64,000 bases of DNA from Eledone cirrhosa (taxonomy: Eukaryota). Location of the stretch: the NCBI GenBank assembly GCA_964016885.1, contig CAXHJY010001692.1, positions 1-64,000 on the forward strand. The letters run 5' to 3'. Below, piece after piece: positions 1,316 through 38,022 of this stretch. The notes under the pieces were generated by a model. That model was not told the origin of the DNA. It made no database searches and worked only from the letters and a program-made list of their open reading frames with translations. The position numbers were made by a program, and so were the translations under genes. Every line of letters starts with the position of its first letter. Positions within the stretch are counted from its first letter, which is position 1.

Positions 1316-1818
1316 AATGTAAGTATGTATGTATGTATGTATACGTACATACATATATATATACAGACTTACAGTAGTATGTATATATATACATACATGC
1401 ACACATATATATATATGCACGTATCAGTTAATATGCATAAGGAAAGTATATACTTTCTGACGTTCAACCATCTGGCAGGAAGGTATACGATGCTGACGAT
1501 AGCTAATAAGCTTGAAACTAATACATCGTTCCTGTGTCAGTGTTGAACAAAAAGATGACGTGCTTGCCGAAACACTGCACGGCGTAATTCGGGCTGTTTG
1601 TTTGATTGCAAACAAACAAACCGAGCATTATAATAAATGTTCGGTAAATTGATACGTGTATATATATATGTGTGCCTGTATGTATATATATATATATATA
1701 CATACTATTGTACGTATGTATACATATATGTATGTACGTATACATACATACATACTTACATTTAAGTAAGTGCCGTACTAAGAGTGAGAAATGAAATTTC
1801 GTTTCATTCTATTCCATT

Positions 1819-1820
<2 letters not shown>
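1316..1820 (+). mobile_element. Short non-autonomous hammerhead-bearing element, family A copy 1, with 5' inverted duplication
   Basis: 1316-1430 is the reverse complement of ~1648-1765; contains a hammerhead at 1487-1529; homologous in reverse orientation to 10268-10630; flanked by (TA)n. Confidence 0.8.
1487..1529 (+). ncRNA. Minimal type-I hammerhead ribozyme (family A)
   Basis: ACGATG-CTGACGA-T-AGCT-AATA-AGCT-T-GAAA-CTAA-TA-CATCGT: helix I ACGATG/CATCGT, core CUGACGA and GAAA, helix II AGCT/AGCT, minimal helix III, UA cleavage site. Confidence 0.85.
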
Positions 1821-1844
<24 letters not shown>

Positions 1845-1853
<9 letters not shown>

Positions 1854-4800
1854 CAATGACACATACCAGTGCTGCCCACTCCAGTATGATGTCTGTCTGT
1901 CTGTCTGTCTATATATATATACACACACACACACACCAATGACACACACCAGTGCTCCCCACTCCAGTATGATGTATGTCTGTCTGTCTGTCTATATATA
2001 CACACACACACACACCAATGACACATACCAGTGCTCCCCACTCCAGTATGATGTCTGTCTGTCTGTCTGTCTATATATATACACACACACACACCAATGA
2101 CACACACCAGTGCTCCCCACTCCAGTATGATGTATGTCTGTCTGTCTATATATACACACACACACACACCAATGACACATACCAGTGCTCCCCACTCTAG
2201 TATGATGTCTGTCTGTCTGTCTGTCTGTCTATATATACACACACACACACACCAATGACACACACCAGTGCTCCCCACTCCAGTATGATGTCTGTCTGTC
2301 TGTCTATATATATATACACACACACACACCAATGACACATACCAGTGCTCCCCACTCCAGTATGATGTATGTCTGTCTGTCTGTCTATATATACACACAC
2401 ACACACACCAATGACACACACCAGTGCTCCCCACTCCAGTATGATGTATGTCTGTCTGTCTGTCTATATATACACACACACACACACCAATGACACACAC
2501 CAGTGCTCCCCACTCCAGTATGACATCTGTCTGTCTGTCTATATATATACACACACACACACACCAATGACACACACCAGTGCTCCCCACTCCAGTATGT
2601 CTGTCTGTCTGTCTGTCTATATATATACACACACACACACCAATGACACATACCAGTGCTCCCCACTCCAGTATGATGTCTGTCTGTCTGTCTATATATA
2701 TATACACACACACACACCAATGACACACACCAGTGCTCCCCACTCCAGTATGACATCTGTCTGTCTGTCTATATATATACACACACACACACACCAATGA
2801 CACACACCAGTGCTCCCCACTCCAGTATGTCTGTCTGTCTGTCTGTCTATATATACACACACACACACCAATGACACATACCAGTGCTCCCCACTCCAGT
2901 ATGATGTCTGTCTGTCTGTCTATATATATATACACACACACACACCAATGACACACACCAGTGCTCCCCACTCCAGTATGTCTGTCTGTCTGTCTGTCTA
3001 TATATATACACACACACACACCAATGACACACACCAGTGCTCCCCACTCCAGTATGATGTCTGTCTGTCTGTCTATATATATACACACACACACACACAC
3101 ACCAATGACACACACCAGTGCTCCCCACTCCAGTATGATGTCTGTCTGTCTGTCTATATATATACACACACACACACACACACCAATGACACACACCAGT
3201 GCTCCCCACTCCAGAATGATGTCTGTCTGTCTGTCTATATATATATATATACACACACACACCAATGACACATACCAGTGCTCCCCACTCCAGTATGATG
3301 TCTGTCTGTCTGTCTGTCTATATATATATACACACACACCAATGACACATACCAGTGCTCCCCACTCCAGTATGATGTCTGTCTGTCTGTCTGTCTATAT
3401 ATACACACACACACACACCAATGACACATACCAGTGCTCCCCACTCCAGTATGATGTCTGTCTGTCTGTCTGTCTATATACACACACACACACACCAATG
3501 ACACATACCAGTGCTCCCCACTCCAGTATGATGTCTGTCTGTCTGTCTATATATATATATATACACACACACACCAATGACACATACCAGTGCTCCCCAC
3601 TCCAGTATGATGTCTGTCTGTCTGTCTGTCTATATATACACACACACACACACCAATGACACATACCAGTGCTCCCCACTCCAGTATGATGTCTGTCTGT
3701 CTGTCTATATATATATATACACACACACACCAATGACACATACCAGTGCTCCCCACTCCAGTATGATGTCTGTCTGTCTGTCTATATATATACACACACA
3801 CACACACCAATGACACACACCAGTGCTCCCCACTCCAGTATGATGTCTGTCTGTCTGTCTATATATATATACACACACACCAATGACACATACCAGTGCT
3901 CCCCACTCCAGTATGATGTATGTCTGTCTGTCTGTCTATACACACACACACACACACCAATGACACATACCAGTGCTCCCCACTCCAGTATGATGTCTGT
4001 CTGTCTGTCTATATATATATACACACACACACCAATGACACACACCAGTGCTCCCCACTCCAGTATGATGTATGTCTGTCTGTCTGTCTATACACACACA
4101 CACACACACCAATGACACATACCAGTGCTCCCCACTCCAGTATGATGTCTGTCTGTCTGTCTATATATATATACACACACACCAATGACACATACCAGTG
4201 CTCCCCACTCCAGTATGATGTCTGTCTGTCTGTCTGTCTATATATATATACACACACACACACACCAATGACACACACCAGTGCTCCCCACTCCAGTATG
4301 ATGTATGTCTGTCTGTCTGTCTATACACACACACACACACACCAATGACACATACCAGTGCTCCCCACTCCAGTATGATGTCTGTCTGTCTGTCTATATA
4401 TATATACACACACACCAATGACACATACCAGTGCTCCCCACTCCAGTATGATGTCTGTCTGTCTGTCTGTCTATATATATATACACACACACACACACCA
4501 ATGACACACACCAGTGCTCCCCACTCCAGTATGATGTATGTCTGTCTGTCTGTCTATATATACACACACACACACACCAATGACACACACCAGTGCTCCC
4601 CACTCCAGTATGATGTATGTCTGTCTGTCTGTCTATATATACACACACACACACACCAATGACACATACCAGTGCTCCCCACTCCAGTATGATGTCTGTC
4701 TGTCTGTCTATATATACACACACACACACACACCAATAACACACACCAGTGCTCCCCACTCTAGTATGACATCTGTCTGTCTGTCTATATATATATACAC

Positions 4801-35830: not shown

Positions 35831-35889
<59 letters not shown>

Positions 35890-35924
35890 ACGTATGTATA
35901 TGTATCTATATATGTATATAGAGA

Positions 35925-37825
35925 ACTGGGAGGAGATAGCTCTAAATATGGCTGAGTGGAGAAAACACATAAAGGGCAGTTGAAAACATTTTTAAAATGT
36001 CATCTAGAACATAAACAACTTAAGCGTCAGCTCTGGAACGGCTGTGCTCACAGTCTGTGACGTTATCAGTAGTTGGACATGCAGATCCTGTACTCCTCTC
36101 AAGGGCTGGTTATGTTAATCACCTAAAATCACATGAAAGGATAACCACTTGCAACACCACTCAACAAGACCTGTCGAAACAACGTGCGTGATATGCAACA
36201 AAGTGTGTACAACTAGTTCTGGACTAAAAAGACACATGGTGGTACGTGAAGGTTGTGTCCCACAGGGTGACCCCACCAGTCTTGTAGAAAGCACAACTCT
36301 CTTCTGTCACCTGTGTCGTAAACCAGGCAGATCTACAGCTGACCTACAAAGTCATCTATGAAGTCTCACAAGGTGACCCCCCCCTCCCATCAGTCTTGTA
36401 GAATGCACAACTCTCTTCTGTCACCTGTGTCGTAAACAAGGCAGATCTACAGCTGACCTACAAAGTCATCTATGAAGTCCCACAGGTTGACCCCCACCAG
36501 TCTTGTAGAAAGCACAACTCCCTTCGGTCACCTGTGTCGTAAACCAGGCAAATCTACAGCTGACCTACAAAGTCATCTACGAAGTCCCACAGGGTGACCC
36601 CACGGTCCTGTGGAAAGCACAACTCTCTTCTGTCACCTGTGTCGTAAACCAGGCAGATCTACAGCTGACCTACAAAGTCATCTATGAAGTCTCACAAGGT
36701 GACCCCCCATCAGTCTTGTAGAATGCACAACTCTCTTCTGTCACCTGTGTCGTAAACCAGGCAGATCTACAGCTGACCTACAAAGTCATCTATGAAGTCC
36801 CACAGGTTGACCCCCACCAGTCTTGTAGAAAGCACAACTCCCTTCTGTCACCTGTGTCGTAAACCAGGCAGATCTACAGCTGACCTACGAAGTCATCTAT
36901 GAAGTCCCACAGGGTGACCCCACCGGTCCTGTGGAAAGCACAACTCCCTTGAGTCACCTGTGTCGTAAACCAGGCAGATCTACAGCTGACCTACAAAGTC
37001 ATCTATGAAGTCCCACAGGGTGACCCCCGTGTCCTGTGGAAAGCACAACTCCCTTCGGTCACCTGTGTCGTAAACCAGGCAGATCTACAGCTGACCTACA
37101 AAGTCATCTATGAAGTCCCACAGGGTGACCCCACGGTCCTGTGGAAAGCACAACTCTCTTCTGTCACCTGTGTCGTAAACCATACAGATCTACAGCTGAC
37201 CTACACAGTCATCTATGAAGTCCCACAGGGTGACCTCACCGGTCCTGTGGAAAGCACAACTCTCTTCTGTCACCTGTGTCGTTAACCATGTAGATCTACA
37301 GCTGACCTACAAAGTCATCTATGAAGTCCCACAGGGTGACCCCACCGGTCCTGTGGAAAGCACAACTCTCTTCTGTCACCTGTGTAGTAAACCAGGCAGA
37401 TCTACAGCTGACCTACAAAGGCATCTATGAAGTCCCACAGGGTGACCCCACCGGTCCTGTGGAAAGCACAACTCTCTTCTGACACCTGTGTAGTAAACCA
37501 GGCAGATCTACAGCTAGCCTACAAAGTCATCTATGAAGTCCCACAGGTTGACCTCACCGGTCCTGTGGAAAGCACAACTCTCTTCTGTCACCTGTGTCGT
37601 TAACCATGTAGATCTACAGCTGGCCTACAAAGTCATCTATGAAGTCCCACAGGGTGACCCCACCGGTCCTGTGGAAAGCACAACTCTCTTCTGACACCTG
37701 TGTAGTAAACCAGGCAGATCTACAGCTAGCCTACAAAGTCATCTACGAAGTCATGGACGCGTATGGGATGATATCGATGAATCAATAAGAGATGGCAATC
37801 GTCTGTGAAGACGTTGCAACCCTCA
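35925..37825 (+). mobile_element. 3' end of an RTE-like LINE with C2H2 zinc-finger remnants
   Basis: Fragmented translation WEEIALNMAEWRKHIKG..LEHKQLKRQL..WTCRSC..SRAGYVNHLKSH..CVICNKVCTTSSGLKRHM..CHLCRKPGRSTADLQSHL(RSH); this WE..A...WR plus CxxC...HxxxH C-terminus is typical of RTE-clade ORFs; stops and frameshifts present. Confidence 0.7.
36257..37751. repeat. ~106-bp tandem array, 14 units, each a copy of one zinc-finger-coding segment
   Basis: Unit GTCCCACAGGGTGACCCCACCGGTCCTGTGGAAAGCACAACTCTCTTCTGTCACCTGTGTCGTAAACCAGGCAGATCTACAGCTGACCTACAAAGTCATCTATGAA. Confidence 0.95.
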
Positions 37826-37961
37826 TATAATAACGGAACAACACTCACTGTTTGGTTGGTTTTCGCTTCTGTATCTTTTATATCTCCATAGTTAATTTAT
37901 TGGGCAATCAATGTTTATCATTGATTGCCCAACGGTTAAAAATACAGATATAAATATACAA

Positions 37962-38022
37962 TATTAAATAAATGGAAACTATATTTATAAAACCATATTT
38001 ATTTCATTATATATATTTCAGG
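37962..38022 (-). mobile_element. Truncated family C fragment (GAAA-TATATA-TA half of the hammerhead)
   Basis: AAATGGAAACTATATTTATAAAACCATATTTATTTCATTATATATATTTCAGGG matches 35309-35363. Confidence 0.65.

Follow-up and report, generated by a model that had tools for sequence, protein, structure and literature searches.

The subject of this analysis is a stretch of 64,000 nucleotides of Eledone cirrhosa DNA (the window), which is a whole contig (CAXHJY010001692.1) of a 3.0-Gb genome and in which satellites take the largest share. It also holds six families of small islands, designated A to F, which lie beside (TA)n tracts and were proposed in a first-pass annotation to be hammerhead ribozyme elements. 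It is likely that these islands are of two kinds, namely ends of Penelope-like retroelements of the Hydra clade (C, D and B) and protein-free tandem units (A, E and F), and that most of the short copies are reverse transcripts of the front end of an uncut RNA. This reading builds on observations of family identity, copy number, coding partners, two fixed 3' ends, two-armed insertions, covarying helices and clustered 5' ends in D and B.

Hammerhead motifs and their load in the genome

Families A, C, D, E and F carry the CUGANGA and GAAA blocks with an NUH site in type I order. A descriptor scan, in which the helix III limit was widened past 8 nt (the 8-nt limit misses D), revealed nine intact type I motifs in the window, compared with none in the reversed window and 0-1 in 20 shuffles. 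The core C3 positions of the nine are 1493+, 10583-, 13020-, 13034+, 22423+, 22952-, 35395-, 35420+ and 38057-; about 12.9 kb of the DNA in 1316..38022 is non-satellite, and the intact motifs are located there. The list of hammerheads in the first-pass annotation needs revision. A, C, D, E and F are indeed multi-copy hammerheads, while B lacks the catalytic C block (112 and 109 copies). The cores at 10737+, in the minus-strand C copy (core 23444-) and at 35703+ are degenerate (CTGATGTA, GATA for GAAA, and CTGGTGA, respectively), and the motif regarded as partial at 37962- is actually intact, with its core at 38057-. The minimal palindromic helix III described for most families is found in A, C, E and F but not in D, whose 4-bp stem with an 8-nt loop is not a dimer-only design. 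Self-cutting is predicted for D as a monomer and for the motifs with a palindromic helix III as dimers.

It had been left to be seen whether the cores are conserved above background. In 790 kb of sampled genome, a search without any demand for pairing returned 164 cores compared with 38 in the reversed sequence, and 23 of these cores, compared with none in the reversed sequence, were followed by a perfect 6-nt palindrome after GAAA. A UH site came after the palindrome in 21 of the 23, and 4-5 of 5 helix I pairs were formed in 20 of those 21. Helix II of the C group presents compensatory A-U/G-C/G-U and C-G/U-A swaps across 109 distinct motifs, and compensatory change was also found in helix I of D and A; E and F are too uniform for such a comparison. 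The fold of D consists of a helix I of 6 bp, a helix II of 3 bp on a U-U pair, and a helix III of 4 bp with an 8-nt loop. Over 37 copies, 90.6% of the cells in this structure are paired (35-47% in slid controls), with 22 two-sided changes, a number that none of 500 shuffles attained.

A number of results weigh against this assignment. The two-sided changes of D are confined to three pairs, which 218 of 500 shuffles also reach, and sequence relatedness among D copies can beat shuffle controls. The window has no Rfam hammerhead match at the gathering score, none is among the best 150 of 237 Rfam matches listed at E<=10, and none was obtained when 21890-23060 was searched separately, so that the annotation's proposed check with Rfam did not recover the motifs. 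The matches obtained were low-complexity microRNA-like ones, which were not taken as identities. In addition, the single-motif folding z-scores of the intact motifs are only -0.6 to -1.8, and the base of helix II is U-U in A, D and F and A-A in E. As regards the predicted dimers, 8 of 9 assayed dimers failed to cleave according to the available part of a Xenopus preprint. With no Rfam hammerhead and unremarkable single-motif folding, the case therefore rests on comparison, and the hammerhead membership of A, C, D, E and F is one by descriptor and covariation, not by Rfam. The Rfam result and the weak single-sequence folding also speak for chance look-alikes amplified by repeats, the source elements having no ribozyme function. 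We consider this highly improbable, given that core, palindrome, UH site and helix I are common to 31 clusters among 69 sampled motifs, and given the compensatory changes in helix II of the C group (109 distinct motifs) and helix I of D and A.

Each of the six islands has a high copy number in the genome (753-4013 first-look candidates per island, 40 each scored), and not single-copy, an outcome that the annotation had named as fatal to its proposal. Exact patterns, which constrain the core and part of the flank and not all helices, and which count one two-armed insertion as two motifs, gave 79,160 C-type, 22,740 D and 24,251 A motifs (sum 126,151; controls 0). The descriptor found 69 motifs, falling into 31 sequence clusters, in 79 evenly spaced stretches (790 kb), compared with 1 in the reversed stretches and 0-4 in shuffles, i.e. 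a density of 87 per Mb (bootstrap 61-116). The sample agrees with the exact counts (C-type, 21 observed and 20.9 expected; D, 5 observed and 6.0 expected), and its extrapolation suggests a genome total of about 250,000 hammerhead motifs. The annotated association with (TA)n is also supported, since 60 of the 70 motifs sampled have a (TA)5 in the 350 nt downstream, compared with 17.7% of random sites.

At least 25 more hammerhead clusters were encountered outside the window (loci L161-L219 and L337-L356), with loops III including CAATTG, TGCGCA, GTAC, CGATCG and CGGCCG and helix II domains of up to about 100 nt. At locus L249:41-1761, identical hammerheads spaced 310 nt apart stand in two opposed arms.

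Coding elements and protein-free units

The features of the window are as follows, with pLTR standing for pseudo-long terminal repeat, RT for reverse transcriptase, ORF for open reading frame and UTR for untranslated region.

1316..1817 (+): family A copy 1; inverted tail-less arm 1316-1427, direct tailed arm 1428-1817; core 1493, predicted cut after 1523; loop III CTAA (majority CTAG)
10080..10238 (+): family B copy 1, a Hydra-type element end without hammerhead core; inverted arm 10080-10100; the direct arm extends from 10101, the predicted start, as far as the end of the tail
10269..10629 (-): second copy of family A, belonging to another subfamily; core 10583, predicted cut after 10553; helix I A-U changed to U-G relative to copy 1
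10700..10927 (+): an old pLTR copy of C type, whose core at 10737 is mutated to CTGATGTA; 5' boundary approximate
12961..13161 (+): insertion of family D in two arms, a minus arm without tail (core 13020-) and a plus arm with tail (core 13034+), joined 6-7 nt ahead of the core, where the start is predicted; cuts predicted after 12982 and 13072; 99-100% identity to the best genomic copies
21895..22045 (+): family B copy 2; short inverted arm; directly adjoins E, which is truncated 5' at this junction
22046..22664 (+): family E, a non-coding unit of about 840 nt in a copy that is truncated 5'; core 22423, predicted cut after 22511; loop III CTCGAG; helix II of 70 nt in this copy (83 nt in the majority)
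22704..23062 (-): family F, a non-coding unit of 1.96 kb represented by its 3' end; core 22952, predicted cut after 22903; loop III TGATCA; TA tract common with E
23261..26404 (-): Hydra-clade Penelope-like element, 5'-truncated and broken; RT, C-terminal GIY-YIG, long 3' UTR and C-family pLTR end
23261-23475 (-): C-family pLTR of this element; core 23444 has GATA instead of GAAA
23476-23530: short foreign piece in this element
24698-26404 (-): Penelope-like ORF
35297..35609 (+): insertion of family C in two arms, the minus arm without tail (core 35395-) and the plus arm with tail (core 35420+); cuts predicted after 35347 and 35468
35690..35830 (+): old D-type copy; core mutated to CTGGTGA at 35703
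37959..38124 (-): arm without tail, from a sister subfamily of C type; its hammerhead is intact, with the core at 38057 and a cut predicted after 38008

The Penelope-like retroelement annotated alongside the islands is indeed there (ORF 24698-26404, minus strand) and, judged by its sequence context, family C is the pLTR of this element. C adjoins the ORF in direct orientation in 18 of 20 coding loci and flanks it on both sides in five. The element is of the class with a single RT ORF that has a GIY-YIG endonuclease at its C-terminus; both a pLTR partial tandem with hammerhead and a (TA)n insertion were found. Because the window copy lacks the first ~180 residues, the clade marks, including the RWK-like motif, were read in a relative with a 743-codon frame (L240), in which RWR, DKT, CxCx5C, CxxC and CxH are present and CCHH is absent. 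The assignment of the C, D and B elements to the Hydra clade is by such sequence marks, the reference proteins (supplement) having been compared by eye. The 3' UTRs of the elements here measure 0.8-1.4 kb.

On evidence of the same kind, D and B form the termini of two further coding elements of the Hydra type. Two of the 30 pattern loci show D running into an RT ORF 175 nt after the core; the protein is 40% identical to that of the C element and has the RWR and DKT motifs, with the pLTR directly before the ORF (the fetched DNA stops before the endonuclease end). The best D copies are 99-100% identical, and D was therefore recently active. Long B copies have several hundred upstream bases in common, and in two of five extended long loci B comes after an RT/endonuclease remnant that has the CxCx5C linker, and after a 3' UTR that can be aligned; the linker and the endonuclease at the C-terminus were read in L304 and L306. 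The link of B to coding sequence thus amounts to two loci, and a complete B element was not seen, which counts against our reading of B.

The absence of a hammerhead from B was found in several ways. A CUGANGA block lies 6-110 nt upstream in 2 of 112 copies, both times in unrelated flank, and at no site within 150 nt, whichever the strand, is the exact block shared by two or more of 109 copies. The UTRs of the coding-linked loci carry no core up to the tail, i.e. the canonical pLTR hammerhead is missing from them, and GAAAC of B is located in a hairpin, the next two letters being GA instead of UH. A circular or non-circular hammerhead permutation (as defined in the available part of PMC10085705) and a U3-A8 variant were considered and rejected, as there is no conserved C block on either side or strand. 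Also rejected was a start of B at the cut site of a D-like ribozyme, as long B copies have no upstream core. As far as its genomic copies tell, B shows that a lineage can spread without a hammerhead. Just after the predicted start, where D has its ribozyme, B presents two alternative hairpins sharing one strand (10101-10145 and 21921-21950).

The families had been described as sharing no obvious primary homology outside the core. B and D do have an 18-nt tail word in common (E 0.008). A hairpin-like tail word, ACTC...GAGT(A/G)C, is common to B, C and D (10170-10195, 13105-13125 and 35520-35545), and to E and F by eye; it is a possible protein-binding signal. Near the 70 sampled motifs GAGTRC is enriched, being found downstream of 13 and upstream of 3 (control 5.8%), but most families lack it.

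The protein-free tandem units would be A (about 435 nt), E (about 840 nt) and F (1.96 kb) only. In A, the hammerhead recurs in consecutive non-coding units of a few hundred nucleotides each; units of 428-441 nt stand head-to-tail at four of the 30 loci, arrays of at least six units occur in the genome, and there is no ORF above 73 codons. No RNA record is listed for an A array, and the contigs of one possibly-RNA run matched simple-repeat parts only. A conserved octamer word, ATGCAAAT, lies about 100 nt upstream of the core in A (L002-L030), and a TATA-like box 46 nt before the core, upstream of the extended helix I; both window copies are cut short of the octamer. E has a fixed 3' end, a variable 5' end and partial tandems only, with both core blocks in 24 of 25 loci. 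Its 102-codon frame was rejected as a gene (26 synonymous and 95 non-synonymous changes and 8 new stops among copies). F recurs in direct orientation at a spacing of 1956-1970 nt in five of the eight extended loci, and locus L294 has two motifs 1.96 kb apart. The longest frame of the F unit is 95 codons, and five queries with Penelope-like elements gave no match in it; an endonuclease upstream of F at locus L155 turned out to be part of another element.

The annotation had asked whether each family is the terminus of an autonomous Penelope-like element. The answer is yes for C, D and B; coding elements that end in A, E or F were not found. Its size estimate of 150-500 nt for non-coding elements likewise stands for A alone, which fits retrozyme size in tandem form, while C, D and B are pieces of 3-kb-class coding elements, E is about 840 nt and F 1.96 kb. 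These findings also bear on the view that all six families are independent small retrozymes replicating via self-cleaved circular RNAs. The head-to-tail arrays of A, with their lack of ORFs, are what this view predicts, and E and F repeat head-to-tail too. However, C, D and B continue into coding elements, B has no core, and short D and B copies are monomers or opposed arms and not tandems. The retrozyme view is refuted for B, C and D, and as an account of all six it is most doubtful.

Copy ends and the probable RNA template

Copies of A, B, C, D and F end at two fixed 3' points, 55-140 nt apart and mostly into (TA)n. Insertions often consist of two opposed arms, one tailed and one tail-less, and the mirrors of A copy 1, B copy 1, D and C in the window are built in this way. 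The 5' ends of D were read in 25 unselected copies met in flanks and random stretches (duplicate L270 removed). Thirteen of them lie at -7..+3 from the core, four lie beyond -120, and none lies between -18 and -126 or at +34..+44, around the predicted cut at +38. The word TATAAATA is found at -36 to -39 in 15 of the 18 D copies having it, with CCAAT farther upstream. Relative to a TTAGT word that follows a TATA-like word at 30 nt, 21 of 48 B copies (non-B rows L016 and L237 removed) have their start at -6..+7. No copy starts at the predicted cut site among 40 C or 26 A copies. Since the starts of short D and B copies cluster (13 of 25 and 21 of 48) about 30 nt past a TATA-like box, and the cut site is not the start of any D copy, uncut, internally primed RNA from the start site is the likely template.

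Some of the data point the other way. The 5' ends of C and A are spread and unclustered, the ends of C, E and F disclose no clear start site, and 27 of 48 B and 12 of 25 D copies start elsewhere than in the cluster. Moreover, the putative start site is placed solely by its spacing from the box; as it falls on the foot of helix I in D, a stop caused by structure is possible. It could be argued that short copies are ordinary 5'-truncated insertions, for which RT begins copying a long RNA at its 3' pLTR and drops off after the folded ribozyme or hairpin. The D cluster exactly at the helix I foot and the spread ends of C and A agree with this, and inverted 5'-truncated copies are a known Penelope trait in the available part of PMC8557442. 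Yet a ribozyme is missing from B, whose starts cluster some 10 nt ahead of the hairpin, at TTAGT, 30 nt behind the TATA-like box, and the D ends have a bimodal distribution in which the interval from -18 to -126 is empty. We therefore hold ordinary truncation to be unlikely.

According to the mechanism that we favor, in which uncut RNA is copied, a pLTR with a polymerase II promoter would start its RNA at the foot of helix I, the endonuclease would nick both strands of (TA)n, and RT would prime internally at two places, located 60-190 nt from the beginning of the RNA, and run off the capped 5' end. The priming sites would occur twice in unit-plus RNA. Use of the front copy would yield a product of 130-200 nt that stops at the cap and, being without promoter, is a dead end; longer copies and the arrays of A, E and F would arise when an RNA that is longer or circular is primed at its downstream repeat. 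A, E and F would probably borrow the enzymes of coding Penelope-like elements. Insertion would not need hammerhead cutting. A cut by the front ribozyme would remove the cap and one by the rear ribozyme the priming tail, and the ribozyme would therefore be a brake or a circle-maker. More tentatively, the densest hammerhead load yet reported (about a quarter million motifs in dozens of families) might stem from an RNA start at the ribozyme foot and an enzyme copying only the uncut front end. The ribozyme might then be a dispensable passenger or a brake, because the sister lineages D (monomer-competent) and B (no ribozyme) are both abundant.

The rest of the contig is mostly satellites, with periods of 77 bp (1827-9110), 89 bp (13884-21596, units 98% identical) and 27 bp (39292-64000), the ranges being matched to the periods in listed order. 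A large palindrome at 27001-33415 is centred on a TA tract (27753-27811), and its halves, reverse complementary at 85-93%, are made of ~199-nt repeats resembling short interspersed nuclear elements and of 17-bp arrays; it is two-armed and TA-centred like Penelope insertions, but has no hammerhead. A dispersed repeat stands twice beside C-type copies (10994-11314 and 37828-37958 plus 38197-38301; 86-93% identical). At 35925-37760, a stretch like the 3' end of a long interspersed nuclear element and a zinc-finger-like stretch are followed by a 106-bp tandem array (label by eye).

Comparison with known systems

Hammerheads in pLTRs are known (PMC4209133), and so are retrozymes and their Penelope origin, as described in the available parts of PMC7229834 and 10.64898/2026.07.22.740005. 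For the Hydra clade, PMC8557442 (Craig et al., 2021), in its available part, describes insertion in (TA)n and a C-terminal endonuclease and calls hammerheads universal; its supplement lists a member from Octopus bimaculoides, Hydra-1_Obim, with hammerhead. The elements examined here resemble that clade in RWR/DKT/CxCx5C/CxxC/CxH, the lack of CCHH, (TA)n, a hammerhead near the end, the tail and the inverted arms, while lineage B, having no hammerhead, departs from the universality stated there.

Like the metazoan non-LTR (long terminal repeat) retrozymes in the portions of PMC7229834 and 10.64898/2026.07.22.740005 considered, A consists of non-coding, low-GC tandem units of about 435 nt with one type I hammerhead each, and its helix II base is U-U as in the retrozyme HHR_Amex2. 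Retrozymes also coexist with Penelope-like elements, as here. Unlike them, A, E and F carry the Penelope tail and two-arm marks, and F (1.96 kb) exceeds the 51-972 bp range given in that preprint. Earlier published type I hammerheads with a palindromic helix III resemble A, C, E and F in that they form many families per genome and are mostly single, with opposite-strand pairs 100-700 bp apart. In contrast to those, D has a stable 4-bp helix III and E an 83-nt helix II domain, and G10.1-C11.1 is mostly absent here; the published ones number 2,000-9,000 per genome.

The largest printed count that we found, in the available part of PMC7229834, is that of the axolotl, with 126,247 motifs in a 28.2-Gb genome. 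The density is at least 42 and probably about 85 per Mb here, compared with about 4.5 per Mb in the axolotl, with search methods that differ. As for the template, the available part of Frangieh et al. (2024, PMC11167929) reports that Poseidon of the anole (Anolis carolinensis) has, in vitro, two internal priming sites, extends both strands and uses uncut RNA as its main substrate. The tail from two internal priming sites, both strands, uncut RNA template and AT-rich target are similar here, where they are read from genomic sequence alone; Poseidon belongs to another clade, and its priming sites lie inside the ORF, whereas here they lie before it. Our search, which covered published reports outside bioRxiv supplements, found none of such a load in such a genome, of a hammerhead-free Hydra-type end, of a 2-kb protein-free unit or of start-site clustering of copies.

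The system is thus real, abundant and largely explained by known kinds, and it is noteworthy for its scale and for the natural experiment offered by C, D and B. The number of motifs at least equals the axolotl record in a genome one ninth the size. Given that Rfam is blind to all of them in the window, such repeats are likely misfiled in annotations of cephalopod-type genomes. The role of the hammerhead in endonuclease-bearing Penelope-like elements is stated to be unclear in the available part of PMC8557442. In this respect, the Eledone families provide a natural test set, comprising a dimer-type ribozyme (C), a stable-helix ribozyme (D), none (B) and protein-free units of three sizes, and the ends of their copies give in-genome support to the in vitro finding of uncut RNA as template.

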